Shown here in pieces: positions 5,124-37,118 of a stretch of 64,000 bases of DNA. A program made the position numbers and the translations under genes. The DNA comes from Candidatus Cryptobacteroides sp. (lineage in GTDB: Bacteria; Bacteroidota; Bacteroidia; Bacteroidales; UBA932). Every line of letters starts with the position of its first letter. The stretch's first letter is position 1. The DNA lies in assembly GCA_045641985.1 (NCBI GenBank), contig JAZUHY010000033.1, forward strand, positions 33,985 through 97,984. Reading direction: 5' to 3'. A model generated the notes under the pieces. That model did not search any database. It saw nothing but the letters and a program-made list of their open reading frames with translations, and had not been told where the DNA came from.

Positions 5124-6494
5124 TCAACTTCTCCAGAACAAGCGCATTCTGGTGCACAAAGTTGTCGCAAAATACATCAGTGCGGTAATTGTCAAACCCC
5201 TGACAATACCCCAGAACGGCGAACCGGCGCAAAGACGGTCGATGTGGCCGAGCAGGCCGCAGCCATACAGCAGCGGGCATATCACAAACCAGCATACGGT
5301 GTATGCTATCATAGGATTCTGGCCTGAAGCGGCCAAAAAGCCTCCCTTCCATCCCTTGTTTTCGAGGTAAAGCAGGAAATATGTGACGATGCAGGACATT
5401 CCTCCGGTAGTGAGCAGGTAGGACAGGTTGCAATGGTCCTTAGCTATCCCTCCATCGGGGAAATCGAACAGAATGCCGGCAATCAGCATAACGAAGCCCA
5501 GGGTTGCCACCGGCAGATTCCTGATATTCCTGTTAACGTTCAGGACAAAGAATATTGCGGTCAGAGACAGTGTGATGCACAGGTCACAGACCGTCTGCCT
5601 GCAATACAGGCCCCACAATTGGACAGCCGCCGCCGCGAGGGCCACAGCCGCAGCCCATCCTTCTTGCCCCGAACGGGACAGCGCTGATGACCTTTTGAGG
5701 CTGGTTTCCAGCAGTATGTCTCCCACGAGGGAGGCGGGGATGATGAGTATCATATACTGCAGGAATCCCCAATTGAACACCCAGTTGAGCCATTCGGGGA
5801 TTTGGGGCAGGGCAATCAATGAAGTGTACGAAAGTATGGCCTTCAGACCTATGGCAATCAGCCATACACTCGTGCGCATCAGTGTGCTGTTGCGGGTGAA
5901 CAGCCAGATGAATCCGCCCCAGAAGGCCACCGTGGCCAGAATCATAATGATGATGTCGTTGTCGTGCAGGCTCATCGGCACCTTGAATATGAAGGCCTCC
6001 GCGGCCATCAGCGCCGCCACGAGGACATAGCCTGCCACGTTGACCGTCCGCTTGTCTGTCCTTACCAGGCTGAGAAACATTCCCGTCCAGAGCAGGATGG
6101 AGAAGCCTCCCTTGACGATATCGGAACCCTGCCATTTGTAGATGCCGCCGGCATTGCCTATGACGAGGGAGAAGAGCACAAGCGTTACCCATCTGCGCAG
6201 CAGGAAAAGCAGGATGTCCGAATTGCCCTTGCCGCTGTCGAGACGCCTGCTGATGGCGAAGGGGAAGGCCGCCCCCATACTGAAGAGGAAGAAGGGGAAC
6301 ACAAGGTCCACCCAGGTGATACCTCTGATTTCGGGATGGAAAACATAATCCGGAGGAGGAACCTGACAATGGAACATCCACGCCGGAAGACCGCTGTTCG
6401 AGGCGATTGCCGCGCAGAGTATCATCATACCCATTGTGAATCCTCTCAGTGCATCGATGGAAATGATGCGCCTGTTATTGCTGCCTGCTGACAT
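5124..6494 (-). CDS. DUF5009 membrane protein (HGSNAT-like putative acyltransferase)
   Basis: Polytopic. SIDALRGF and GITWVDLVFPFFLFSMG motifs of the HGSNAT-related family. Confidence 0.8.
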   Translation of the reverse strand: MSAGSNNRRIISIDALRGFTMGMMILCAAIASNSGLPAWMFHCQVPPPDYVFHPEIRGITWVDLVFPFFLFSMGAAFPFAISRRLDSGKGNSDILLFLLRRWVTLVLFSLVIGNAGGIYKWQGSDIVKGGFSILLWTGMFLSLVRTDKRTVNVAGYVLVAALMAAEAFIFKVPMSLHDNDIIIMILATVAFWGGFIWLFTRNSTLMRTSVWLIAIGLKAILSYTSLIALPQIPEWLNWVFNWGFLQYMILIIPASLVGDILLETSLKRSSALSRSGQEGWAAAVALAAAAVQLWGLYCRQTVCDLCITLSLTAIFFVLNVNRNIRNLPVATLGFVMLIAGILFDFPDGGIAKDHCNLSYLLTTGGMSCIVTYFLLYLENKGWKGGFLAASGQNPMIAYTVCWFVICPLLYGCGLLGHIDRLCAGSPFWGIVRGLTITALMYFATTLCTRMRLFWRS

Positions 6495-7867
6495 TACTTT
6501 TTCCAGTATTCTTCGATTTCCTCAAGTGTCTTGCCTGTGGTTTCGGGCACAAGTTTCCACATAATCAGCATATACGGTACGCACATCACTGCGAACAGGA
6601 AGAAGGTCCCGGCAGGGGAGAGGGTAGCCATACACCAGGGCGTGAACTGGCCGATGAGATAGGTCCCGACCCATAGCACGAGGCCTGCGATGCTCATCGC
6701 GAGCCCGCGCACCCTGTTGGGATACATCTCGCTCAGCAGCACGAACACCACGGCACTTATGCTGATTGCCTGGCAGAAAATGTACAGAAGGAAGAAAACG
6801 AGCAGAACCGTGCCGGCTCCTTCCGTAGCGAATATGATGCCTATGGCGATAAGGCAGAGTATCATTCCGCTGACGCCGAAATAGATGAGTTTCTTGCGGC
6901 CCACCTTGTCGATGATAAATACGGCGAGTACGGTGGTCAGCATATTCACAAGCCCTACAAGCACAGTGGAGAAGGATGAGTCCTCAGCCGCAAGGCCTGC
7001 GTCGGCGAAAATGTCGGGACCATAGTATATTACAGCATTGACGCCCATAAACTGTCCGAGTATGGCGATGGCCGAACCAATCAGCACGGCGCGTATGATT
7101 CCTTTCTCTGTCAGGGCCTTCCATTCGGATTTCACCTCTCCGGCAATGGATTCCCTGGTCCTGAGGCATTCTTCCTCTGCACCTTCGGCAGTGGCTTTCA
7201 GTCTGCGGAAAATACTCATTGCCTTTTCGTTCTGCCCCTTGACTATCAACCATTTGGGGCTCTCCGGGATAAAGAAGACAATGAAGAAGAACAGCAGGGT
7301 GATGACGGCCTCGCTGCCGAGCATTCCGCGCCACAATTCATCGCTGAGCACCCATTTGAAGAAACCGCCGAACTGCACAGTGCCGGAGTTCTTGAGTATG
7401 ATGAAGTTGATGAGATAGGCCAGAACAATGCCCAGAGTCACGGCAAACTGGTAAAGCGACACCATCGTGCCCCTGATTTTCGCCGGAGACACTTCCGAAA
7501 TGTAGATGGGGGAGACTATGCTCACAATACCTATTCCTATGCCGCCTATGATGCGGTAAATCACAAGGTCGGTCATACCTATGCACAGGCAGCATCCTAT
7601 TGCTGAAACGCTGAACAGCACGGCTGCAATCAACATTGATTTCTTCCTTCCCAGAAAATCGCTGAGCATACCGGCAATCGCGGCTCCGAAGATGGTTCCC
7701 ACAAGGGCGCACCCCACGTACCAGCCCTTGGCCATCTCGTCCAGACCGAACTGGGCGCTCACCTGGGCCGTGGTGCCGGATATGACAGCCGTGTCATAGC
7801 CGAACAGTATTCCTCCCAGTGCGGCTACGAACGAGAGGAACAATACATACGGGAAATTGTCTTTCAT
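6494..7867 (-). CDS. MFS sugar porter (XylE/GalP-like)
   Basis: GGILFGYDTAVISG, DFLGRK, YISEVSPAKIRG, PESPKWL, PETTGKTLEEI. Confidence 0.95.
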   Translation of the reverse strand: MKDNFPYVLFLSFVAALGGILFGYDTAVISGTTAQVSAQFGLDEMAKGWYVGCALVGTIFGAAIAGMLSDFLGRKKSMLIAAVLFSVSAIGCCLCIGMTDLVIYRIIGGIGIGIVSIVSPIYISEVSPAKIRGTMVSLYQFAVTLGIVLAYLINFIILKNSGTVQFGGFFKWVLSDELWRGMLGSEAVITLLFFFIVFFIPESPKWLIVKGQNEKAMSIFRRLKATAEGAEEECLRTRESIAGEVKSEWKALTEKGIIRAVLIGSAIAILGQFMGVNAVIYYGPDIFADAGLAAEDSSFSTVLVGLVNMLTTVLAVFIIDKVGRKKLIYFGVSGMILCLIAIGIIFATEGAGTVLLVFFLLYIFCQAISISAVVFVLLSEMYPNRVRGLAMSIAGLVLWVGTYLIGQFTPWCMATLSPAGTFFLFAVMCVPYMLIMWKLVPETTGKTLEEIEEYWKK

Positions 7868-8991: not shown

Positions 8992-10089
8992 TTATTCGAT
9001 AGGTTTGACCGGCATTTCCCAGCCGGTGAGGGTGGCGACATAGGGAATGATGCAGGAGGCCACTTTCCTATGGCCTTTGTAATTGGGATGGCTGCAGGAA
9101 CCCAGGTCTCCCGAATCGTCGTGGGCTCCCGGCAGTATGACGGCGCAGCGCGCGTTGCTGTCTCCTGTGCTTTCCACGGCTATGCGCACATATTCACTCA
9201 TAAGGGGGTCGGCATTGGATGCCACACAAAGGACAGGAACGTCGGGACCGTAATTGCCGCGTACCTGACGGAGGAGCTGCGCATAACCCGCACACCATAA
9301 TTTGAGAGAAGGCTGTTTGCCGCAGCTGAAGTCGTTGGTGCCGAGGTATATCACAACGATATCCGGCTTGAAACCGTCCCGTGATGCATCCCATTTCCTG
9401 TCCCTGAAGCTGTCGTCAAGATACTGGCCATATCTGTCCACCATTGTCCCCGACTCGGGGTCCGCGTCATTGTAATTCCTCACTACTCCCCTTCCTGAGT
9501 GACATATTGTCCTTATACCGGCATCGAAGTACCTTCCTGTTATGGATGCATATGCAAGGTTGCAGTTCTCTTCCGAAGCGCGGAAAGGCTGGCTCTTGTC
9601 TGCTCCTTCCGTGCCGAAGCCGCAGGTGTAGGAATCTCCAATGAATTCTATGTGTCTGGTGAACGGATCCGCGGCCTTGAGAAGTTTTCCGTCAGTCAGG
9701 AACCTGTTGATTGTCAGGCATCCCTGCTCCCCCTCGCTACGTTTCTGGAGAATGATGCTGTGGCTGCCTTCCTGCAGACCTTCGGCCAGCGGGATGCGTC
9801 CGCCGTTCTCCGTGGCGATGACGTAGTCCTGCGCGGGCCTCATCGGCTTGTCAATCCAGACATTGAAGAAACAGGTACCGCTGTCCTTACAGTCCATTGT
9901 CAGACAGGTGCCTGAGAATTTGATATATACTGTGGTATTGCTCCAGTCAAGGATTACCTTCCCGTTTTCTTTCAGGACCCTTCCCTGATAGAATATGCCG
10001 GGATCCGAAGCATTATGAAGAGAGGGCTCCGCTCCGAGTGAGGCCAGGGGGAGCAGAAAAAAAAGAGCAAGAAAGTTGATTCTGTTCAT
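8992..10089 (-). CDS. SGNH/GDSL esterase (CE2-like acetylesterase)
   Basis: Blocks FIGDSYTCG, SGRG, YLGTND, HPN plus a signal peptide. Confidence 0.85.
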   Translation of the reverse strand: MNRINFLALFFLLPLASLGAEPSLHNASDPGIFYQGRVLKENGKVILDWSNTTVYIKFSGTCLTMDCKDSGTCFFNVWIDKPMRPAQDYVIATENGGRIPLAEGLQEGSHSIILQKRSEGEQGCLTINRFLTDGKLLKAADPFTRHIEFIGDSYTCGFGTEGADKSQPFRASEENCNLAYASITGRYFDAGIRTICHSGRGVVRNYNDADPESGTMVDRYGQYLDDSFRDRKWDASRDGFKPDIVVIYLGTNDFSCGKQPSLKLWCAGYAQLLRQVRGNYGPDVPVLCVASNADPLMSEYVRIAVESTGDSNARCAVILPGAHDDSGDLGSCSHPNYKGHRKVASCIIPYVATLTGWEMPVKPIE

Positions 10090-10114
10090 TTTTGGACTTG
10101 TTTTCGTTAACCCT

Positions 10115-11413
10115 TTATAGTTTGCAGATGAGCGTGGCCTGGGTGCAGTCCACGACCTTTACGCGGACGAGGTCGCCGGCCTTGTGCACGCTGTCTTCCC
10201 AGACGCACATCTTGCCCGTGCCGGTGCGGCCGCAGAGCTGCGACTGCCCTTTCTTGGAAGGCCCTTCCACAAGCACGTCGAAGCATTTGCCCACATCGCG
10301 CCGGTTGCTTTCCAGACTCAGTTTGTTCTGCAGCGCAATGATTTCCTCCAGGCGGCGCGTCTTGGTGTCGATATCCACGTCATCCGGATATTTCCGGGCG
10401 GCCAGAGTCCCCGGCCTTTCGGAATAGTAGAACATAAAGGCGGCGTCGAACCTGACTTTCTCGAACAGGCTCAGCGTGTCCTTGTGGTCTTCTTCAGTTT
10501 CGGAGCAGAATCCGGCAATCACGTCGGTGGTGATGGCGCAGTCCGGCATTATCGAGCGGATTCTTGCGACCCTGTCCAGATACCATTCCCTTGTATAGCG
10601 GCGGCGCATCTTCTCCAGAATCCTGTTGGAGCCCGATTGCACCGGGAGGTGAATGTGATGGCAGATATTGGGGTATGCCGACATAGTGTAAAGCACCTCG
10701 TCCGAGATGTCCTGCGGGTTGGAAGTGGAGAAGCGCACGCGCATATCGGGACAGGCCTCGGCCACCATTGCCAGCAGTTGCGCGAAAGTGGTGCCCTCGA
10801 AGTTGTAGGAATCTACGTTCTGGCCGAGGAGTGTCACTTCCCTGTACCCTTTCGAGCCGCATTCGCAGGCCTCACGGACTATGGTGCGGCTGTCTCTGCT
10901 TCTTTCGGCTCCTCTGGTGTAGGGAACAACGCAGTAGGAGCACACGTTGTTGCAGCCGCGCATAATTGAGATGAAGGCTGATACACCGTTCCTGTCAATC
11001 CGGACGGGGGAGATGTCACCGTAGGTCTCTTCCCGCGACAGGGTGACGTCAATCTGGGGATGACCGCCGGAGGCTGCGTCAAGAAGTCCGGGGAGATTAC
11101 GGTATGAGTCAGGCCCGGCTACGACATCAACCTTTCCGGAGTCGAGCAAAGCATTCTTGAGCCGCTCCGCCATACATCCCAGTATGCACACGATGACCTT
11201 GCGGCCGCGTCTCTGAAGATTGAACTGCTCTATCCTGCCCCATATCCTCTGCTCGGCATTGTCTCTGACGGAGCAGGTATTCGCCATTATGACGTCCGCC
11301 TCGTCAATGCTTTCCGTGCGTTCGTATCCGGCTTGCCCGAGTATGGAGAAAACGACTTCGGTATCGTTGACATTCATCTGGCAGCCGTAGGTCTCTATGT
11401 ATAGCTTTTTCAT
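10115..11413 (-). CDS. miaB: tRNA-2-methylthio-N6-dimethylallyladenosine synthase
   Basis: ETYGCQMN N-terminus, radical-SAM GCNNVCSYC, HIHLPVQSGS, C-terminal TRAM domain. Confidence 0.97.
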   Translation of the reverse strand: MKKLYIETYGCQMNVNDTEVVFSILGQAGYERTESIDEADVIMANTCSVRDNAEQRIWGRIEQFNLQRRGRKVIVCILGCMAERLKNALLDSGKVDVVAGPDSYRNLPGLLDAASGGHPQIDVTLSREETYGDISPVRIDRNGVSAFISIMRGCNNVCSYCVVPYTRGAERSRDSRTIVREACECGSKGYREVTLLGQNVDSYNFEGTTFAQLLAMVAEACPDMRVRFSTSNPQDISDEVLYTMSAYPNICHHIHLPVQSGSNRILEKMRRRYTREWYLDRVARIRSIMPDCAITTDVIAGFCSETEEDHKDTLSLFEKVRFDAAFMFYYSERPGTLAARKYPDDVDIDTKTRRLEEIIALQNKLSLESNRRDVGKCFDVLVEGPSKKGQSQLCGRTGTGKMCVWEDSVHKAGDLVRVKVVDCTQATLICKL

Positions 11414-27887: not shown

Positions 27888-29735
27888 ATGCAACACAAAG
27901 TAATAGATGCTGGTGATGTTGTGATCAGATTTGCGGGGGACTCGGGAGACGGCATGCAGCTGACCGGGTCTCTTTTCGCAGATATGTCGGCAATCTACGG
28001 CAACGGGCTGTCCACGTTCCCGGACTATCCCGCGGAAATCCGGGCGCCTCACGGCACGGTTTCAGGAGTTTCCGGATTCCAGGTCCACATAGGCAGTACC
28101 GTTGTCAACACTCCGGGCGATATGTGTGATATGCTCATTGCGATGAATCCGGCTGCGCTCAAGGCAAATGCCAAATGGTGCAAGCGTCACGCAATGATTC
28201 TCATCGATGAGGACGCATTCGACGAAGCCGGTATGAAGAAGGCCGGTTTCAAGACGGACAACCCTTTCACGGAGCTTTCAGTAGAGGACAGAACCATCAT
28301 TGTGGCCCCCATCACAACGATGACGAAGGAGAGTCTGAAGGACAGCGGAATGGACCAGAAAGCCATTCTCAAATGCAAGAATATGTTCACACTCGGCATT
28401 GCCTGCTACATTTTCAACAGACCGCTGGAACCGATATTCAGCTATCTTGAGAAGAAATTTGCCGCGAAGCATCCGGAAGTGATAGAACCCAACAAGAAAG
28501 TAATTCAGGACGGTGTCAACTATGCGGCCAACGTGCAGGCAATTGCCAATACCTACACCATTGAGCCCGTCAAGTCCGCCAAGAAGGGTACCTACCGCAA
28601 CATTACCGGAAACCAGGCGGTTGCGTGGGGGCTTCTTGCCGCATCGGAGAAATCCGGGCTGCCCCTTTTCTGCGGCTCATATCCCATTACCCCGGCTACG
28701 GCCATCCTTGAGGAACTTGCCGTTCATAAGAGTCTCGGGGCCAAGACCCTTCAGGCAGAAGACGAGATTGCCGGAATCTGTACGGCCATCGGAGCATCTT
28801 TTGCCGGCAATCTTGCCGTGACTACAACCTCCGGACCCGGACTGTCTCTCAAGTCGGAGGCTCTCGGACTTGCAGTGATGGCTGAACTGCCTCTGGTCGT
28901 GGTTGATGTCCAGCGTGGCGGTCCTTCGACCGGCCTGCCCACCAAGACGGAGCAGACCGACCTCAATCAGGCCCTTTACGGAAGGAACGGAGAGTGCCCC
29001 ATCCCTGTGGTATGCGCTCATTCTCCTGCGAACTGCTTCTTCGCCGCTTTCCAGGCGGCTAAGATTGCCCTCGAGCATATGACTCCCGTTATCCTTCTTT
29101 CCGAAGGTTTCCTTGGAAACGGCAGTGAACCCTGGCTCATACCGTCAATGTCGGAATATCCGGAAATCAATCCTCCTTTCGCTACAGGGGCGATGGCATC
29201 CGGCGAAAGATTTCATCCTTTTGAGAGGGACCCGAAGACGCTGGTGCCAAAGTGGGCAATCCCCGGGCAGAAGGGATATGAGCACAGAGTGGGCGGATTG
29301 GAAAAGACCCACGAAGGAGTGTTGTCCACAGATCCGCTGAATCACGAGACTATGGTCCGTGAAAGGGCTGAGAAGGTAGCGCGGATAGCCGACGACATTC
29401 CCGAGCTCAAAGTTCGCGGAGCCGAATCGGGCAAACTGCTGGTTGTAGGCTGGGGCGGTACGTACGGTCATATATCGAGTGCCATACACGACCTTCAGGA
29501 GGAGGGGGTGGCGGTATCCTATGCGCATTTTGACTTCATCAACCCTCTGCCCGCCAATACGGAGAAAGTTTTTTCCGGATTCGACAGGATTCTGGTTTGC
29601 GAATTGAACTCCGGCCAGTTTGCCGACTACCTCCGCGCAAAATTCCCGGGGAAGCATTTCATCAAGTTCAACAAGATTCAGGGACAGCCTTTCCTTGTAG
29701 AGGAAATCACATCCGCTGTCAGAAAGGAGATATAG
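27888..29735 (+). CDS. korA: 2-oxoacid:ferredoxin oxidoreductase alpha(gamma) subunit (KorA-like)
   Basis: RFAGDSGDGMQ, YPITPAT, QAEDEIA, TSGPG, QRGGPSTG.PT. Substrate (2-oxoglutarate) is inferred. Confidence 0.9.
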   Translation: MQHKVIDAGDVVIRFAGDSGDGMQLTGSLFADMSAIYGNGLSTFPDYPAEIRAPHGTVSGVSGFQVHIGSTVVNTPGDMCDMLIAMNPAALKANAKWCKRHAMILIDEDAFDEAGMKKAGFKTDNPFTELSVEDRTIIVAPITTMTKESLKDSGMDQKAILKCKNMFTLGIACYIFNRPLEPIFSYLEKKFAAKHPEVIEPNKKVIQDGVNYAANVQAIANTYTIEPVKSAKKGTYRNITGNQAVAWGLLAASEKSGLPLFCGSYPITPATAILEELAVHKSLGAKTLQAEDEIAGICTAIGASFAGNLAVTTTSGPGLSLKSEALGLAVMAELPLVVVDVQRGGPSTGLPTKTEQTDLNQALYGRNGECPIPVVCAHSPANCFFAAFQAAKIALEHMTPVILLSEGFLGNGSEPWLIPSMSEYPEINPPFATGAMASGERFHPFERDPKTLVPKWAIPGQKGYEHRVGGLEKTHEGVLSTDPLNHETMVRERAEKVARIADDIPELKVRGAESGKLLVVGWGGTYGHISSAIHDLQEEGVAVSYAHFDFINPLPANTEKVFSGFDRILVCELNSGQFADYLRAKFPGKHFIKFNKIQGQPFLVEEITSAVRKEI

Positions 29736-29738
29736 ATT

Positions 29739-30758
29739 ATGGCAAATCTGACATCAAAGGATTTCAAGAGCGATCAGGAGGTGCGCTGGTGTCCGGGTTG
29801 CGGCGACCACGCCGTGCTTGCGGCCCTGCAACGTGCGCTTCCGAAGGTAAGCCAGGCTCTCAACTATGACAAGGAACGTTACGTCATCGTTTCCGGAATA
29901 GGATGCTCGTCACGCCTGCCCTATTATATGGATACTTTCGGTTTTCACAGCATTCACGGGCGGGCCACGGCAATCAGCACCGGCATCAAGGTGGCCAATC
30001 CCTGGCTCACCGTCTGGCAGGCCTGCGGTGACGGTGACGCCCTGGCAATCGGAGGAAACCATTTCATCCACGCCATCCGCAGGAATATCGACATCAACGT
30101 CATACTGTTCAACAATCAGATCTACGGCCTGACAAAGGGGCAGTACAGCCCGACGTCCAAGTTCGGAGCCATAACGAAGACTTCGCCCTACGGTACGGTG
30201 GAGCATCCCTTCAATCCCGGGTCCCTGGTTCTGGGAGCCAAGGGCACCTTCTTTGCCCGCTCTCTGGACGTGGAGCTTGCCCTCAACGAGGAGATTATGA
30301 CAGCGGCGGCCCTCCACGACGGATGCTCCGTGATGGAGATGCTTACCAACTGCGTGATTTTCAATGACGGGGCGCACAAGAGTCTGTCGGACCCCGCCGT
30401 CAGGGCAGACCATACCATCATCCTCAGGGACGGGGAGAAAATGGTATTCGGACGCGACAGGGACCGCGGCCTGGTGTTCGACGGCAGGAAAATCCGTGCC
30501 GTGCGCATCGGCGAGGGCGGGTACACGATTGACGACATTATGGTTCACGATTCCCATTCGGACGACATCGGTCTGCATATGGCTCTTGCCGAGATGAAGG
30601 GGCCGGACTATCCGGTGGCTCTCGGTGTCATCCGGGACGTGAAGGACATCACATACGACGACGGTGTCCGTGACCAGGTCAAGGAGGTTATGACAAAATC
30701 CAGGATTCATTGCGTGGATGACCTCCTCCACAGCGGCAGCACCTGGGAAGTGAAATAA
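29739..30758 (+). CDS. korB: 2-oxoacid:ferredoxin oxidoreductase beta subunit (KorB-like)
   Basis: RWCPGCGD, SGIGCS, TPP-binding GDGDA..NN, YGLTKGQ.SPT. Confidence 0.9.
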   Translation: MANLTSKDFKSDQEVRWCPGCGDHAVLAALQRALPKVSQALNYDKERYVIVSGIGCSSRLPYYMDTFGFHSIHGRATAISTGIKVANPWLTVWQACGDGDALAIGGNHFIHAIRRNIDINVILFNNQIYGLTKGQYSPTSKFGAITKTSPYGTVEHPFNPGSLVLGAKGTFFARSLDVELALNEEIMTAAALHDGCSVMEMLTNCVIFNDGAHKSLSDPAVRADHTIILRDGEKMVFGRDRDRGLVFDGRKIRAVRIGEGGYTIDDIMVHDSHSDDIGLHMALAEMKGPDYPVALGVIRDVKDITYDDGVRDQVKEVMTKSRIHCVDDLLHSGSTWEVK

Positions 30759-30776
30759 CAGAACAATGATTATATT

Positions 30777-32120
30777 ATGAAGACATCTGAAATAATGGCC
30801 CGTCTGCGGGCAAAGTATCCTGGGGAGAACGAATATCTCCAGGCTGTGCAGGAAGTTTTGGAAAGCATAGAGGATGTATATAACGAGCATCCTGAATTTG
30901 AAAAGGCGAAGATAGTGGAGAGGATGGTTGAACCCGACCGCATCTTCAGTTTCCGCGTTACCTGGATAGATGACAAGGGTGAGGTGCAGACCAACACAGG
31001 ATACCGCATCCAGTTCAACAGCGCCATAGGCCCCTACAAAGGCGGCCTCCGTTTCCACAAGGCCGTTACGCCCTCAATGCTCAAGTTCCTCGGCTTCGAG
31101 CAGACTTTCAAGAATGCCCTCACCACTCTCCCTATGGGCGGCGCGAAGGGCGGCTCCGATTTCGACCCCGTGGGCAAGAGCAATGCTGAAATTATGCGCT
31201 TCTGTCAGGCGTTTATGCTGGAACTCTGGCAGTGCATAGGTCCGGACCAGGACATCCCCGCCGGAGATGTGGGTGTGGGAGGCCGTGAGATAGGATATCT
31301 CTACGGAATGTACAAGAAACTCGCGCGCGAGTACAACACCGGTGTCCTCACCGGAAAGGGAGCAACTTGGGGAGGCTCCATCCTCCGTCCTGAAGCCACC
31401 GGCTTCGGTGCTCTCTATTTTACCCAGAATCTTCTTCACAAGGCGGGGAAGGACATCAAGGGGTGCAGGGTCGCAATCAGCGGCTTCGGCAACGTGGCCT
31501 GGGGTGCCTGCACCAAGGCTACCGAACTCGGAGCGAAGGTTGTGGCTGTTTCCGGTCCCGACGGAGTGTGTGAGATTCCCGACGGCATTACGCCGGAGAT
31601 GATTGCCTATATGCTTGAGATGCGTGCCTCCAACCGCAACAAGGTGCAGGATATGGCGGACAAGTTCCCCGGACAGGCAAAGTTCGTCGCCGGCAAGAAG
31701 GCTTGGAGCGTCAAATGCGATATTGCCCTTCCCTGCGCCTTCCAGAACGAATTGTCGGAGGATGATGCGAAGGAACTCAAGGCCAACGGAACCTGGTGCT
31801 GCTGCGAGGTTTCCAATATGGGATGCCAGCCCGGCGCCATCCGCTACTTCCAGAACAACGGAGTGCTTTTCGCTCCGGGAAAGGCTGTCAACGCGGGCGG
31901 AGTGGCCACTTCCGGTCTGGAGATGACGCAGAACGCCAGTCATATCAGCTGGAGCGGCAGGGAAGTGGACGAGAAACTTCATTTCATTATGGACAGCATT
32001 CACGAAGCCTGCGTGAAATACGGCACGCAGCCTGACGGCACTGTGGATTACGTGAAAGGAGCGAATATCGCCGGCTTTATGAAGGTCGCCACGGCAATGC
32101 TCGAACAAGGAATAGTATAG
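30777..32120 (+). CDS. gdh: Glutamate dehydrogenase, intact, with NAD-type fingerprint
   Basis: GPYKGGLRF, FKNAL, GGAKGG, PAGD, RPEATG, NAGGV. GFGNVA and SGPDG match the NAD-preferring clostridial/Porphyromonas type. Confidence 0.95.
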   Translation: MKTSEIMARLRAKYPGENEYLQAVQEVLESIEDVYNEHPEFEKAKIVERMVEPDRIFSFRVTWIDDKGEVQTNTGYRIQFNSAIGPYKGGLRFHKAVTPSMLKFLGFEQTFKNALTTLPMGGAKGGSDFDPVGKSNAEIMRFCQAFMLELWQCIGPDQDIPAGDVGVGGREIGYLYGMYKKLAREYNTGVLTGKGATWGGSILRPEATGFGALYFTQNLLHKAGKDIKGCRVAISGFGNVAWGACTKATELGAKVVAVSGPDGVCEIPDGITPEMIAYMLEMRASNRNKVQDMADKFPGQAKFVAGKKAWSVKCDIALPCAFQNELSEDDAKELKANGTWCCCEVSNMGCQPGAIRYFQNNGVLFAPGKAVNAGGVATSGLEMTQNASHISWSGREVDEKLHFIMDSIHEACVKYGTQPDGTVDYVKGANIAGFMKVATAMLEQGIV

Positions 32121-32123
32121 CAT

Positions 32124-33239
32124 ATGGATGAAAAAACAGCTTTTATTAATGGATTTCTAGACAATTTCGACGCACTCAATCCTGGAGAAACGGTCTTCAG
32201 ACAGGCTGTGGCTCTCTCTTTGGAAGCCGTCGCTCCGTACATTCTCGAACATCCCTCCGTGGAGGACCAGAACGTTATGGACAGGCTCGCAGAGCCGGAA
32301 CTCGCGGCGTCGTTCAGGGTTGTCTGGCTGGATGACGAAGGCGAGCCCAGAGTCAACAGGGGATTCTTTGTGAGGATGAACTCTGCCTTGGGCAAATGCC
32401 GCGGAAGGCTGCGTTTCCATAGTGACGTCAATATGGACGTTGTGAAGTACCTGGCTTACGAACAGGCCTTCAGTAATGCGCTTGCCCGGACTCCCGCCGG
32501 CGGATGCGCCGCCGGATCCGATTTCTCCGTCCGAGGCAAGTCCGACACGGAGGTGATGAACTTCTGCCAGAGCTTCATTACGGAACTGCAGAAATACTGC
32601 GGCTCCTCGGAGTTTACTGCGGAAGTGGGCGTGAGCGAGAGGGAGACCGGCTTCATCTTCGGGCAGCTCCGGCGACTGAAGGGAGAGGGTGCCGGCAGGC
32701 TGAGTACATTGGACACCGATGCCTGCGTTGTGCCTGAAAGCCTTTCCGGCAAGACGGTTGCCCTGTCCGGTTCAGGCAAGACAGCCCAGTACGTGGCATC
32801 GGAACTTGTGGCTTCCGGAGCCAGGGTTGTGGCACTGTCCGATTCCGAAGGTTTCGTTTATGACCGTGCCGGTATGGATGAGACTAAACTTGCCTATGTC
32901 GCGGAACTCAAGAACGTTTTCCACGGCTCTCTCAAGCGTTATGTCGAGAAATATCCCCAGGCCGAATACTTCTCGGGAGAGCATCCCTGGAGCGTGAAAT
33001 GCGATGCCGTCATAGCCTGCGCCTGCCAGAACGAGATAAATGCCGACGAGGCGAAAAAACTGCTGAAGAACGGCTGCACCCTGGTGGACGAGCTTTCGGG
33101 AATGTCCTCCTCCGCCGAGGCTTCGGCCGTGTTCGCCGCATCGGGAATCACATATATGTCCTCCTGCCTCTGTGGCGAGAAGTGCCTGAAAGCCTTCTCC
33201 CGGATTGCAGAGGCGATGCTTTCACAGGGACTTGTATAA
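32124..33239 (+). CDS. Glutamate dehydrogenase homologue lacking catalytic residues (putative pseudo-enzyme)
   Basis: Aligns to GDH along its length but has YKGG>CRGR, FKN>FSN and GAKGG>GCAAG. The RPEATG and NAGGV segments are deleted in-frame. The ORF is uninterrupted at 371 aa. Confidence 0.85.
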   Translation: MDEKTAFINGFLDNFDALNPGETVFRQAVALSLEAVAPYILEHPSVEDQNVMDRLAEPELAASFRVVWLDDEGEPRVNRGFFVRMNSALGKCRGRLRFHSDVNMDVVKYLAYEQAFSNALARTPAGGCAAGSDFSVRGKSDTEVMNFCQSFITELQKYCGSSEFTAEVGVSERETGFIFGQLRRLKGEGAGRLSTLDTDACVVPESLSGKTVALSGSGKTAQYVASELVASGARVVALSDSEGFVYDRAGMDETKLAYVAELKNVFHGSLKRYVEKYPQAEYFSGEHPWSVKCDAVIACACQNEINADEAKKLLKNGCTLVDELSGMSSSAEASAVFAASGITYMSSCLCGEKCLKAFSRIAEAMLSQGLV

Positions 33240-33251
33240 TTATATGAAATT

Positions 33252-35351
33252 ATGAAAACTTCAATTATTGTGGCGGCGGCCTGTGTGGCGCTGCTCAGTT
33301 CGTGTAAAATGGAAAACCCGCTTCTGAGCGAGTCGCCGCTTCCTTATGGCGCCCCGCAGTTCGACAAGATTAAGAATGAGCATTATCTCCCCGCTTTCGA
33401 GCAGGGCATAAAGGAGGGAAAGGCTGAGATTGATGCCATCGTTGCCAATCCTGATGCTCCCACATTCGAAAATACAATCGTGGCTTTGGAGGAGAGTGGC
33501 AGTACTTTGAGCAGGGTCTCGGGTATTTTCTACAATCTGATGGAGGCCGACACCGATGACGAAAAGCAGGAGATTGCGGAAAAGGTGTCTCCTATGATGA
33601 CTGAGTACTCTATGTATATCTCGCTCAACGAAGGCCTCTTCTCAAGGGTGAAGGCTGTGTATGAGCAGAGGGAAAGTCTCGGTCTTGACAGAGATCAGAT
33701 GAGACTTCTCGAGAAGACATACAAGGGCTTCGTCCGCGGCGGAGCAAACCTCAGCCCGGAGGACAAGGAGACGTACAGCAAATTGAACGAACAGTTGTCC
33801 CTTCTTGAACTCAAGTTCGGAAAGAATTCCCTTGCCGCCACAAATGCATTCAAGCTGAATCTGACTGATGAGGCTGACTTGGAAGGATTGCCGCAGTTCG
33901 TAAGGGATATGGGAGCCGCCACAGCGAAGGAGAATGGTCAGCAGGGATGGACCTTTGACCTGACCCATCCCAGTTACAGTCCGTTTATGCAGTACAGCTC
34001 CCGCAGGGATCTCAGGAAAACGCTTTATATGGCTTCTGCCACCAAGGCTGTAGGCGGTGAATTTGACAATACCGCCGTGTGCAAGGAAATTGTCGGTCTC
34101 AGAATTCAGATTGCCAATCTGCTGGGATACAAGACTTACGCCGACTATGCGGTGGAAAGCAGGATGGTGGGTTCCGTGGACCGTGTGCATTCGTTTATGA
34201 AGGAGCTTCTCGATCCGTCACTCCCGTCTGCACGCGCCGAGGTGGCCGCAGTGCTCAAGTATGCCAAGGCCAATGGATTCGAGGACAACGAACTTCAGCC
34301 CTGGGACTTTTCCTATTGGTCCGAGAAGTACAAGGATGCGCATTACGCCCTCAATGACGAAATTCTCAAGCCTTACTTCAAGCTGGAGGACTGCATAGAT
34401 GCGGTGTTCGGGCTTGCCACAAGACTGTTCGGCATCAGTTTCGAGGAGAGGACGGACATTCCCGTGTATCATAAGGACGTGAAGGTTTATGACGTGAAGG
34501 ATGCAGACGGGCGTCATCTGGCATTGTATTATGTGGATTTCTTCCCCCGCGCCTCCAAGAGGTCGGGAGCCTGGATGACCGAGTTCCGCGGGCAGAGCAT
34601 AAGGGACGGCGTCGAGTACCGTCCGTTCGTGAGCATCGTCACCAATTTCAGCAAGCCCACGGAGACTGCCCCTTCGCTTCTGACGCATTACGAGCTGACC
34701 ACATTTATGCACGAGTTCGGACATTCCCTTCACGGGATGTTGACGGAAGGACGCTACGAATCCCTCGCCGGCACCAACGTGGACCACGATTTTGTGGAAC
34801 TGCCTTCACAGATAATGGAGAACTGGGGCTATGAGAAAGACTTCCTCAAGCCCTTCGCAAAGCATTACGAAACCGGTGAAGTGATTCCCGATGAGCTGAT
34901 AGACAAGATTATTGCCTCGCAGAACTATCTGGCCGCCTACCTTCAGGTACGCCAGCTTCAGTTCGGTACCATAGATATGGCGTGGCATACACTCACCTCG
35001 CTGCCCGAAGACGGCACCGTCGAGTTCGAACGCAAGGCTGTGGAGCCACTTCTCACCTTGCCTGCCGTGGAAGGAGCCTGCTCCTCCACAACTTTCGGCC
35101 ATATATTCTCCAACAACTACTGCGCGGGTTACTACTCCTACAAGTGGGCCGAGGTGCTGGCCGCCGATGCCTACTCCCTTTTTGAGGAGAAAGGCATCTT
35201 CAACACCGAAGTGTCCGGTTCTTTCCGCGAAAACGTCCTTTCGAAGGGGAGCACCGAGGAGGAAGCCGTACTCTACCGCAGGTTCCGCGGACATGACCCG
35301 GAGCCGAAGGCTCTGCTGGTGAAACTCGGAATAGTTGCTCCGGCCAGATAG
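33252..35351 (+). CDS. dcp: M3 family metallopeptidase (peptidyl-dipeptidase Dcp-like), lipoprotein
   Basis: Lipobox LLSSC, KRSGAWM, HEFGH, VELPSQ.MENW, AGYYSYKWAEVL. Confidence 0.93.
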   Translation: MKTSIIVAAACVALLSSCKMENPLLSESPLPYGAPQFDKIKNEHYLPAFEQGIKEGKAEIDAIVANPDAPTFENTIVALEESGSTLSRVSGIFYNLMEADTDDEKQEIAEKVSPMMTEYSMYISLNEGLFSRVKAVYEQRESLGLDRDQMRLLEKTYKGFVRGGANLSPEDKETYSKLNEQLSLLELKFGKNSLAATNAFKLNLTDEADLEGLPQFVRDMGAATAKENGQQGWTFDLTHPSYSPFMQYSSRRDLRKTLYMASATKAVGGEFDNTAVCKEIVGLRIQIANLLGYKTYADYAVESRMVGSVDRVHSFMKELLDPSLPSARAEVAAVLKYAKANGFEDNELQPWDFSYWSEKYKDAHYALNDEILKPYFKLEDCIDAVFGLATRLFGISFEERTDIPVYHKDVKVYDVKDADGRHLALYYVDFFPRASKRSGAWMTEFRGQSIRDGVEYRPFVSIVTNFSKPTETAPSLLTHYELTTFMHEFGHSLHGMLTEGRYESLAGTNVDHDFVELPSQIMENWGYEKDFLKPFAKHYETGEVIPDELIDKIIASQNYLAAYLQVRQLQFGTIDMAWHTLTSLPEDGTVEFERKAVEPLLTLPAVEGACSSTTFGHIFSNNYCAGYYSYKWAEVLAADAYSLFEEKGIFNTEVSGSFRENVLSKGSTEEEAVLYRRFRGHDPEPKALLVKLGIVAPAR

Positions 35352-35448: not shown

Positions 35449-35467
35449 CCCTGATGAAAGAGATCCT

Positions 35468-35509
35468 GGCACTTGCGCGCAGTCACCGGCGCAAGTGCCG
35501 ACTTTTTTT
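35468..35509 (+). terminator. Intrinsic terminator (ends the dcp transcript upstream of the ATPase promoter)
   Basis: 11-bp stem GGCACTTGCGC/GCGCAAGTGCC, 10-nt loop, then a T7 run. Confidence 0.85.
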
Positions 35510-35535
35510 GTTTTGCAATTGTGAAAACGAAGAAT

Positions 35536-35543
35536 TAACTTTG
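35536..35543 (+). promoter_or_regulatory. -7 box of the ATPase-nuclease gene
   Basis: TAACTTTG, 6 nt before the ATG at 35550. Confidence 0.7.
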
Positions 35544-35549
35544 CAGGGT

Positions 35550-37118
35550 ATGGAAACACGGACACAGCTTCGCAACCTGCCCATCGGCATCCAGAACTTC
35601 GAGAGCCTGAGAAACGATGGATACCTTTACGTTGACAAGACGGAACAGATATACAGGCTCGTCACTACGGGGAGGTACTATTTTATCTCCCGTCCGCGCA
35701 GGTTCGGGAAGAGCCTTCTGATGAGTACGATTCATTCGTTTTTCAGTGGCAGGAAGGACCTTTTCGAGGGCTTGGCCGTTGCCTCCAAGCCGGACGTCAC
35801 CTGGGAGAAGCACCCGGTGTTGCATCTGGACCTGAACGCACAGGAATATGCCACAAAGGAAAAATTGCAGTATGTGTTGAATGAATTCCTTCTTCTTCAC
35901 GAGCGGCGTTACGATATTGACAGTGATAAGAGTGACAATTTCGGCCCGCGTTTTTCAAATGTCATCCGTCGCGCTTTCGAAAAGACCGGCCGCAAGGTTG
36001 TGATACTGGTTGACGAGTACGACAAGCCTATGCTTCAGGCCATCGGCAATCCGGAGTTGCAGGAAGCATACCGCGCTACGCTGAAGGGCTTCTACGGGGC
36101 CCTCAAGTCGATGGACGGCTGCATAAGGTTTGCCCTTCTGACGGGCGTGACGAAGTTCGGCAAGGTGAGCGTGTTCAGCGACCTGAACAATCTCAACGAC
36201 ATCTCGATGGATGCTGAGTTCTATGATGTCTGCGGCATCACTGAAGGAGAACTGCGCACTCAGTTTGTCCCGGAGATCAAACAGCTGGCCGAAAAATACG
36301 GCATCACGGAGGACGAGTGTCTGACGGCTCTCCGGGAAAAGTATGACGGATATCACTTTGAAGAATCTGTCCCCGGCGTCTATAACCCGTTCAGCCTGCT
36401 CAACGCATTCTATAAAAAGAAATTCGGCAGCTACTGGTTCGAGACCGGCACTCCGACCTATCTTGTGGAACTGCTGCAGGAACGCGACTATGACCTCGAA
36501 AAGATGTCGCGCGTAACGGCCGACGCTGACGAGCTGAACAGCATCGACTCGACATCTACCAATCCGATACCCGTGATTTACCAGAGCGGATACCTCACCA
36601 TCAAGGGATTTGACCCGGAGTTCGGCACCTATACGCTGGGCTTTCCAAACGCCGAAGTGGAGGAAGGCTTTACCAAATTTCTGATGCCCAGCTATATCCA
36701 CCGTCAGGAGAACCGTTCGCCGTTCCTGATAAACAATTTTGTGGAGGATGTGAGAAACGGCAACACGGAACAGTTCATAGGACGCCTCCGCTCCCTTTTC
36801 GCCGACACCCCCTATGAGATAATCCGCAATATGGAGACCCACTACCGCAACGTGGTGTGGCTTCTATTCAAGCTGATGGGCTTCTACACCCAGGCCGAGT
36901 ACCGCACCAGCGAGGGACGCATAGACCTCGTGGTAAAGACCCCGAAGTTCTGCTATGTGCTGGAGTTCAAGCTCGACGGCACCGCCGAAGAGGCTCTGGC
37001 CCAGATTCAGGACAAGAACTACACCCTTCCCTTCGCCGTCGAGGACCAGCAGATTGTCCGCATCGGCATCAACTTCGACTCCGCCACCCGCAACATCGGC
37101 AAGGTCCTCGTCGGGTAA
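35550..37118 (+). CDS. AAA-ATPase-like protein with a C-terminal PD-(D/E)XK nuclease domain (Bacteroidales 'ATP-binding protein')
   Basis: LPIGIQNFE, YVDKT, Walker A RPRRFGKS, Walker B ILVDEYD, YDGYHF, YNPFS, WFETGTP, nuclease GRIDL..LEFK. Confidence 0.93.
   Translation: METRTQLRNLPIGIQNFESLRNDGYLYVDKTEQIYRLVTTGRYYFISRPRRFGKSLLMSTIHSFFSGRKDLFEGLAVASKPDVTWEKHPVLHLDLNAQEYATKEKLQYVLNEFLLLHERRYDIDSDKSDNFGPRFSNVIRRAFEKTGRKVVILVDEYDKPMLQAIGNPELQEAYRATLKGFYGALKSMDGCIRFALLTGVTKFGKVSVFSDLNNLNDISMDAEFYDVCGITEGELRTQFVPEIKQLAEKYGITEDECLTALREKYDGYHFEESVPGVYNPFSLLNAFYKKKFGSYWFETGTPTYLVELLQERDYDLEKMSRVTADADELNSIDSTSTNPIPVIYQSGYLTIKGFDPEFGTYTLGFPNAEVEEGFTKFLMPSYIHRQENRSPFLINNFVEDVRNGNTEQFIGRLRSLFADTPYEIIRNMETHYRNVVWLLFKLMGFYTQAEYRTSEGRIDLVVKTPKFCYVLEFKLDGTAEEALAQIQDKNYTLPFAVEDQQIVRIGINFDSATRNIGKVLVG

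Follow-up and report, generated by a model that had tools for sequence, protein, structure and literature searches.

A conserved, predicted non-catalytic relative of glutamate dehydrogenase encoded directly behind gdh in gut Bacteroidales

The short gene and its neighbours

The stretch of DNA analyzed here, which we call the window, is 64,000 nucleotides long and comes from a Candidatus Cryptobacteroides genome (contig JAZUHY010000033.1, positions 33,985 to 97,984). At 32124-33239 it carries a gene of the glutamate dehydrogenase (GDH) family with 371 codons and zero internal stops; we refer to it as the short gene, and to its 371-aa product (P0001) as the short protein. Coordinates are those of the window, forward strand, unless another locus is named. 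The gene lies directly behind a full-length gdh gene (30777-32120, 447 aa), whose product, Gdh, is the presumed catalytic partner, and at the junction of the two (32118-32126) the stop and the start read TAG-cat-ATG, with a gap of 3 nt. The uninterrupted 371-aa open reading frame that the initial annotation of this DNA placed 3 nt behind gdh is thus there. After another gap, of 12 nt, comes a gene for an M3-family peptidyl-dipeptidase (Dcp-like; 33252-35351; Pfam Peptidase_M3, 430 bits). Upstream of gdh the order is bamA and ompH, then korA and korB (27888-30758), which encode a 2-oxoacid:acceptor oxidoreductase and are context that is not obligatory, as we will see. A simple scan finds neither terminator-like nor sigma-70-like sites in the intervals that separate gdh, the short gene, and the peptidase gene; Bacteroidota promoters are outside its scope.

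By fold and homology, the short protein is a member of the Glu/Leu/Phe/Val dehydrogenase superfamily. It matches both Pfam domains above cut-off, ELFV_dehydrog_N (PF02812) at residues 59-183 with 88 bits, and ELFV_dehydrog (PF00208) at residues 205-349 with 118 bits, the second match being partial (profile positions 28-168 of 241). It scores under every NCBIfam cut-off for GDHs (best 317 bits vs. 536, for PRK09414). The neighbouring Gdh, also recognized by Pfam, passes its own NCBIfam cut-off (PRK14030, 808 bits vs. 743), has the NAD-type motifs GFGNVAW and SGPDG, and finds as its best solved homologue the NAD-specific C. symbiosum GDH (1BGV, 533 bits), which it matches end to end and with catalytic residues complete. 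PGAP-style names label Gdhs of the window type 'NADP-specific' despite these NAD-specific clostridial motifs.

The AlphaFold2 model of the short protein, calculated from an alignment of 37 rows, is confident (pLDDT 89.8, pTM 0.85), and its lowest values (pLDDT 74-81) occur near residues 161-200, which include a linker described below. Foldseek places the model next to bacterial, fungal, and protozoan GDHs at TM 0.84-0.88, query-normalised. In the model, domain I has its five strands, and the Rossmann strands and C-terminal helix (351-368) are there as well, so the earlier claim that the N-terminal strands and the Rossmann domain are retained holds in the predicted structure. The last part of the chain (residues 357-371; 33192-33236) is the helix that in GDHs returns to domain I, and six of its residues, A357, F358, A364, Q368, G369, and L370, are invariant in the aligned sequences of the short clade.

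Active-site residues, deletions and selection

The short protein is not alone. A search of 5.8 billion protein clusters returned 11 clusters with the same short architecture, eight whose proteins measure 371-373 aa, at 66-98% identity, and three whose proteins measure 350 aa, at 51-53%. With another 350-aa cluster from a profile search, the family comes to 12 clusters and 111 member sequences, none of them named by any source. The profile scores fall in a step, from 603 bits for the last short member to 468 bits for the first full-length GDH. An exhaustive search of 1.84 billion representative proteins reports one representative of the short clade (634 bits), and the next match is a full-length GDH at 368 bits. 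Apart from the extra 350-aa cluster, neither of the two collections yields a more distant short clade. The short family is a single narrow family, and one without distant cousins. A 373-aa 'short form' that appeared in a survey of genomes of the same bacterial family (genome G194) was discarded, as it is a full-length gene cut by the end of its contig.

To describe what the family has lost, we use the residue numbers of the C. symbiosum enzyme (Cs; 1BGV), transferred by way of the neighbouring Gdh (Cs number = neighbour number + 1) and a table of alignment columns. The three active-site lysines are gone. The gamma-carboxyl lysine K89 is R93 in the short protein, where YKGG has become CRGR (residues 92-95; 32397-32408). 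K113 is S117, where FKN has become FSN (residues 116-118; 32469-32477), a position that varies in the clade between S, A, R, and Q. The catalytic K125 is A129, where GGAKGG has become GGCAAG (residues 126-131; 32499-32516), and both A129 and A130, which stand for K125 and the next glycine, are invariant in the 12 aligned sequences of the short clade. The initial annotation reported all three lysine motifs as altered, and they are, but CRGR cannot be taken as the general state of the family, since it is fixed only in the nine 371-aa clusters, and the 350-aa subgroup shows F[AT][IV]S in its place.

The site has one survivor of sorts. D165 is E167 (TAE for AGD, residues 165-167; 32616-32624), a conservative swap inside an otherwise destroyed site, with D or E in 12 of 12 orthologues. 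The PAGD motif, described earlier as lost, is indeed altered, but its acidic residue is kept. The remaining ligands do not fare as well: N240 is K219, T322 is C301, N347 on the nicotinamide side is G326 (ELSG for EGAN, residues 323-326; 33090-33101), N373 is G351, and S380 is deleted.

Two in-frame deletions remove 77 residues in total. The first takes 22 residues, Cs 189-202 plus Cs 220-227, including TGKG..WGGS, and what was RPEATG in between is now unrelated sequence. The result is a remodelled first crossover between the domains (residues 189-208; 32688-32747), standing, with a net change of -22 residues, for TGKG..WGGS..RPEATG and the helix that follows. The second deletion takes 55 residues, Cs 380-434, with S380 and the hinge-helix region; its junction lies at residues ~346-357 (33159-33194) and has the same boundaries in both subgroups. 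The hinge helix of GDHs has been placed after the NAGGV motif, and through it the cofactor domain can close onto the substrate domain (PMC7326016). Mapped by homology with other GDHs, the second deletion would span this helix, and so the two deletions together shorten both of the crossovers between the domains. The in-frame removals proposed initially thus correspond to two real deletions, with the correction that NAGGV has been substituted rather than removed, and that the second deletion begins at S380.

All 12 clusters have both deletions with identical boundaries and alanine at K125, across about 50% sequence divergence. Because the same features recur in 12 orthologue clusters, they are far beyond what chance could produce. 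The full-length relatives conserve 272 positions to at least 92%; of these, 91 persist in 11 or more of the 12 aligned short sequences, 43 are deleted, and the remainder are altered or retained in only part of the short clade. From the loss of the lysines, the nicotinamide-side contacts, S380, and the hinge, we infer that the short protein can neither bind glutamate nor transfer hydride, that is, that it is catalytically dead. With the lysine of GG[AGS]KGG and the K89, K113, and S380 ligands gone, and a score below the family cut-offs, we would not class it as a functional GDH (EC 1.4.1.2-4).

Has the gene simply been decaying? We recovered the coding DNA of 12 orthologues, and 12 out of 12 are intact. 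Pairwise dN/dS (ω) for the least saturated pairs is 0.046-0.062, and a GY codon model fitted on the tree by maximum likelihood (ML) gives ω of 0.063 for the short gene and 0.018 for the adjacent gdh of the same genomes. For the short gene, ω = 1 is rejected with 2ΔlnL of about 2022. The constraint is spread over the whole length, with ω of 0.043 in the N-terminal helices, 0.053 in domain I, 0.052 in domain II, and 0.070 in the C-terminal part, and the sole relaxed segment is the remodelled linker (0.26). For the window and its closest relative, L004, which is the least saturated pair, ω is 0.028 for korA, 0.021 for korB, 0.024 for gdh, 0.062 for the short gene, and 0.050 for the M3 peptidase gene. 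The short protein is the fastest-changing protein in its neighbourhood (51-92% identity vs. 94-98% for Gdh), and still the gene is constrained like that of an ordinary enzyme, and is preserved by purifying selection.

A decaying pseudogene, or an artefact of annotation, would account for the missing catalytic residues, for the 77 lost residues, and for the fastest evolution in the neighbourhood. But the 12 intact orthologues, their shared deletion boundaries, and an ω this low exclude decay, and the fold is confident as well, all of which leaves an explanation of this kind with a next to negligible probability. The test that accompanied the first description of the gene, a comparison of dN/dS and of the deletions among orthologues, comes out in favor of an intact and conserved GDH homologue with a replaced active site: ω is 0.063, there are no frameshifts, the deletions are the same, and the catalytic residues are not intact.

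Ancestry and the cofactor site

The closest relatives of the short protein are GDHs of 451 aa from other Bacteroidales that the sources name NADP-specific, at 45-49% identity. In the ML tree, the short sequences form a monophyletic clade (100/100) whose stem is long, at 0.49 substitutions per site. The clade attaches to groups of full-length Bacteroidales GDHs at a polytomy on a long branch, and several strongly supported branches lie between it and the clade of the neighbouring Gdh (100/99). We also collected the 60 alignment columns that tell GDHs of the partner type from those of the NADP type, with conservation of at least 90% within each type and different residues between the two. At these columns, the short clade has the NADP-type residue in 28 cases and that of the partner in 1; another 26 columns are mixed or have some other residue, and 5 are deleted. 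The motifs agree with this, GSG and SDSEG for the short protein vs. GFG and SGPDG for its neighbour. That the short protein is a former NADP-type GDH, and not a recent copy of the NAD-type enzyme beside it, as initially proposed, is well supported by the tree, the columns, and the motifs.

Two side observations concern this ancestry. A 420-aa protein from one 2.7-kb metagenome contig (P0103) is a Bacteroidales NADP-type GDH with two other internal gaps (~17 and ~15 residues) and intact catalytic motifs; it may have arisen by misassembly, or represent a further GDH that has been trimmed. And in one genome of the same family (L048, G022:C24:13000-25000), a full-length NADP-type gdh (5155-6504, minus strand) sits convergently directly after korB, with an NAD-type gdh (9663-11006, plus strand) 3 kb on. 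Both gdh paralogues can therefore sit near korAB, and such an arrangement is a possible precursor of the tandem in the window. A full-length NADP-type GDH is absent from the three genomes with the short form in which we looked, the window's own, which is 96% complete, and two incomplete metagenome-assembled genomes (MAGs) from horse faeces.

What remains of the cofactor site is lopsided. The glycine loop of the dinucleotide fold, SGSGKTAQ (residues 215-222; 32766-32789), has G216, G218, K219, A221, and Q222 invariant in the short clade, with a serine (S217) at the position of clostridial F238 and K219 for N240. The second Rossmann strand ends in the NADP-type SDSEG (residues 239-243; 32838-32852), with S241 at the position of clostridial P262. 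NADPH-dependent GDHs have serine where the clostridial enzyme has F238 and P262 (PMC3157743), and the neighbouring Gdh has F and P there. Among 13 sequences of the short clade, position 217 is Ser in 10 and Ala in 3, and position 241 is Ser in 12 and Thr in 1. Other NADP-like residues of the adenosine side, D240, Q222, K263, and N264, are invariant, and S241 is nearly so. Because the glycine loop is invariant and the NADP-type adenosine side is conserved, the pattern suggests that the short protein may still bind NADP(H), at least by its adenosine-2'-phosphate part, and makes a role in sensing NADP(H) plausible at most. On the nicotinamide side, 4 out of 4 residues (Cs N240, T322, N347, and N373) are changed. 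We also considered ALSGSGKT as a Walker A motif, a reading that we rejected since the position of its threonine is T, V, or L among the orthologues.

The former substrate cleft has acquired new residues in the 371-aa subgroup. C92 is present in 9 of 9 sequences and C128 in 6 of 9, C301 is found in 11 of 12 overall, and two arginines, R93 and R95, are added (32397-32408 for C92, R93, and R95; 32505-32507 for C128; 33024-33026 for C301). The 350-aa subgroup has neither C92 nor C128, nor the two arginines of CRGR. The set could be an anion, metal, or redox site specific to one subgroup.

Could the dinucleotide fold have been reused for a different reaction, so that the short protein is now a new enzyme? 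Both domains are strongly constrained, the clade has invariant residues of its own (D105, K219, and R248), and the new cysteines and arginines of the 371-aa subgroup line the former cleft, all of which speaks for a new activity. But each of the residues responsible for placing the nicotinamide ring has changed, the hinge required for closing the domains is deleted, and the cleft differs from one subgroup to the other, with no catalytic-looking new constellation throughout the clade. We regard a new enzymatic function as improbable.

Genomic context, proposed role and comparison with known systems

The most regular property of the short gene, besides its deletions, is its position. The gene directly upstream is gdh in 14 of the 14 loci that have upstream sequence, at 90-100% identity to the gdh of the window, which bears out the tie to gdh that the initial annotation had drawn from a single locus. 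The gap between the two genes ranges from -1 to 13 nt, and in three loci stop and start overlap as TAATG. The M3 peptidase gene follows downstream in each of the 13 loci whose sequence reaches that point. Most loci have korAB ahead of gdh, but one locus (L032) keeps gdh, the short gene, and the peptidase gene without korAB. The constant association is thus with gdh and the peptidase and not with KorAB, and the earlier suggestion that KorAB might be the target of the short protein is weakened by the korAB-free locus and finds no support here.

The named genomes that carry the short gene are Bacteroidales MAGs from horse faeces. Among 201 sampled species genomes of the same family, the short form occurs in only 1, the window's own. 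Genomes of the same genus keep bamA-ompH-korAB-gdh, with a gdh 73-76% identical to that of the window, and have neither the short gene nor the peptidase gene at that site; their M3 peptidase orthologue is located elsewhere. Homologues of the window's gdh in other Bacteroidales (the sources name Muribaculum and Alistipes; loci L049-L055) are 86-92% identical, vs. 73-76% at the korAB site of the same genus. The block of gdh, short gene, and peptidase gene may be at odds with the species tree, by replacement or by transfer.

Some details of the surroundings are worth recording. The window's own genome has, at the end of contig C37 (8171-8335; L003:1492-1668, minus strand), a C-terminal gdh fragment of 58 aa with no short gene after it. 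By eye, it resembles the C-terminus of the window's gdh in about 53 of 58 residues, and it represents either a further copy of gdh or a strain-variant contig that binning placed in the MAG. Past the peptidase gene, the closest relative has ~100 nt before a CoA-transferase gene (L004:7535-7638), where the matching region of the window (35454-37118) has about 1.8 kb with an open reading frame of AAA-ATPase/PD-(D/E)XK type. The N-terminus of the M3 peptidase (33252-33290) is hydrophobic and signal-like (MKTSIIVAAACVA), so the peptidase is probably exported, and a direct partnership with the short protein in the cytoplasm seems unlikely.

What, then, does the short protein do? Because the active site is lost and yet the gene is preserved by selection, a non-catalytic partner or sensor is the likeliest kind of answer. 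The reading that we favor, with a probability of about 0.5, sees in the short protein a non-catalytic partner for the Gdh encoded beside it. It would be produced from the same transcript as a working NAD-type Gdh and, having lost catalysis but kept domain I, from which hexamers are built, along with the C-terminal helix and the Rossmann domain, it would associate physically with Gdh, either docked onto it or entering the hexamer through domain I. In GDHs, domain I builds the core of the D3 hexamer, including a ten-stranded sheet across the two-fold axis (PMC7326016). The association would tune glutamate catabolism, possibly in answer to a nucleotide bound at the surviving adenosine and 2'-phosphate half of the cofactor site.

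Several results weigh against such a partnership. The short protein is 35% identical to the neighbouring Gdh, and no convergence on it is seen, with 1 of the 60 discriminating columns partner-like. Gdh stays 94-98% identical while the short protein falls to 51%, and with Gdh nearly unchanged there is no co-variation signal between the two. The old glutamate pocket is different in the two subgroups (CRGR vs. FAIS), so a metabolite site in that pocket is not family-wide. And given the lost residues on the nicotinamide side, full recognition of NADP(H) is uncertain.

As an attempt to see the two proteins together, we folded a read-through fusion of the two, with the gdh stop codon TAG taken as Gly (820 aa). 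It gives pTM 0.47 and a mean pLDDT of 71, with the Gdh half poorly modelled from only 8 near-identical rows, and speaks neither for nor against an association. As biology, the fusion was rejected: the two genes are in the same frame in the window, but the gaps of 13 nt (L031) and -1 nt (L034) are out of frame.

A free-standing protein, homo-oligomeric or monomeric, might instead bind a nucleotide or metabolite and either buffer it or act on another target, such as KorAB, a transcription factor, or another enzyme, its place behind gdh reflecting co-regulation only. Constraint on the Rossmann domain (ω 0.052) matches that on domain I, its NADP-like adenosine-side residues are invariant, and there is that missing convergence on the partner; Thermus also provides an example, discussed below, of a dead amino-acid dehydrogenase that regulates an unrelated enzyme. 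But no neighbour is invariant apart from gdh upstream and, downstream, the gene of a peptidase that is probably exported; the locus can do without korAB, it conserves no other candidate partner, and overlap of stop and start with gdh is typical of proteins made in fixed proportion. For these reasons we consider a free-standing binder unlikely, though well short of negligible.

The kept assembly domain, the linkage to gdh, and the lack of a ligand pocket conserved where substrate once bound would also suit a factor for the folding, stability, or assembly of Gdh, or a storage-type or moonlighting scaffold, acting independently of any ligand. Such a role leaves unexplained why the Rossmann domain is under equal constraint and why its NADP-type specificity positions are kept. 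Nearly identical Gdhs (86-92%) are moreover common in Bacteroidales, when the short family is confined to its own narrow lineage, and this explanation is to us a poor bet.

Returning to the partnership with Gdh, its most specific form is that a GDH subunit locked by the loss of its hinge joins the hexamer of NAD-Gdh and monitors the NADP(H) pool, or else a 2'-phospho-adenosine ligand, linking catabolic glutamate oxidation to the anabolic redox state. Glutamate oxidation would here feed KorAB and the propionate pathway. We offer this locked subunit as a tentative idea that we ourselves find rather unlikely as a whole. If it were true, hetero-hexameric GDHs would have evolved independently a second time, with a kind of sensing unlike the leucine/AMP control of Thermus.

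The observation of the short gene is solid and its distribution is narrow, and that narrowness limits its ecological weight. Both domains are under enzyme-like constraint despite the lost lysines, the trimmed crossovers, and the removed hinge. A solution like that of Thermus GdhA seems to have evolved separately in gut Bacteroidales, starting from the other major class of hexameric GDHs and by a far more radical route. If the short protein does co-assemble with Gdh, then hetero-oligomeric regulation of GDH would be a recurrent outcome of evolution, and the short protein a natural minimal GDH scaffold for separating what assembly needs from what catalysis needs. It would also hint at a control step in the amino-acid fermentation of the herbivore hind-gut, which runs from peptide to glutamate, 2-oxoglutarate, succinyl-CoA, and propionate. 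Full-text literature on GDH pseudoenzymes or on Bacteroides gdhA/gdhB returned nothing on a Bacteroidales GDH pseudo-enzyme, which is weak evidence.

Regulatory pseudo-enzymes that act on their active relatives are well documented in eukaryotic signalling and are rare in bacterial central metabolism. The reference case for pseudo-enzyme regulation of GDH is the GdhA/GdhB pair of Thermus thermophilus, whose genes, gdhA and gdhB, lie next to each other. GdhA is described as the regulatory subunit, without catalytic activity, of a hetero-hexameric GdhA/GdhB enzyme, for which formation of the hetero-hexamer and activation by leucine are reported (PDB 3AOE; Tomita et al. 2010, 2011), so the precedent that the initial annotation invoked is a real one. 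The likeness is that of an inactive GDH paralogue serving an active one, a pseudo-enzyme made from the enzyme's own fold; the short protein resembles a subunit of the GdhA type as a GDH paralogue, inactive as judged from its sequence, encoded beside an active one in 14 of 14 loci. The differences are substantial. GdhA belongs to the GDH class of ~420 aa and is full length (chains of 419-424 residues), whereas the short protein lacks 77 residues, the hinge, and the three lysines. It also derives from a type of GDH unlike its partner (35% identity), in a clade that arises within the ~450-aa GDHs of Bacteroidales, and it matches the 3AOE chains only distantly (E-values 1.5e-12 and 1.5e-7), which does not amount to orthology with Thermus GdhA. 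For GdhA/GdhB, both the hetero-hexamer and the control by leucine and AMP are known, whereas for the Bacteroidales pair co-assembly and regulation are predicted.

Other systems share one or another of these properties. The 451-aa NADP-type GDHs of Bacteroidales (for example those from Paludibacteraceae and Tidjanibacter MAGs) have the same state as the short clade at 28 of the 60 columns, including the GSG and SDS motifs, but unlike it they are full length and have every catalytic residue. In plants, different GDH subunits (Arabidopsis GDH1-3) mix in one D3 hexamer through domain I (PMC7326016); those subunits are all catalytically active and closely related to each other, unlike the pair formed by Gdh and the short protein. 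The alanine-dehydrogenase-like pseudo-enzyme (ADLP) of Thermus thermophilus has its catalytic lysine replaced, still binds NAD(H), and serves as an accessory protein that senses redox state (bioRxiv 10.1101/2025.10.31.685773). Like the short protein it is a lysine-less homologue of an amino-acid dehydrogenase, and it is a model for reading the short protein as a nucleotide sensor, but it belongs to another fold family, its target is a CoA transferase, and its cofactor binding has been demonstrated, where that of the short protein is predicted. Considering all these systems, we conclude from the sequences that the short protein is an analogue of Thermus GdhA that evolved independently, far more degenerate than GdhA and not a member of its family.

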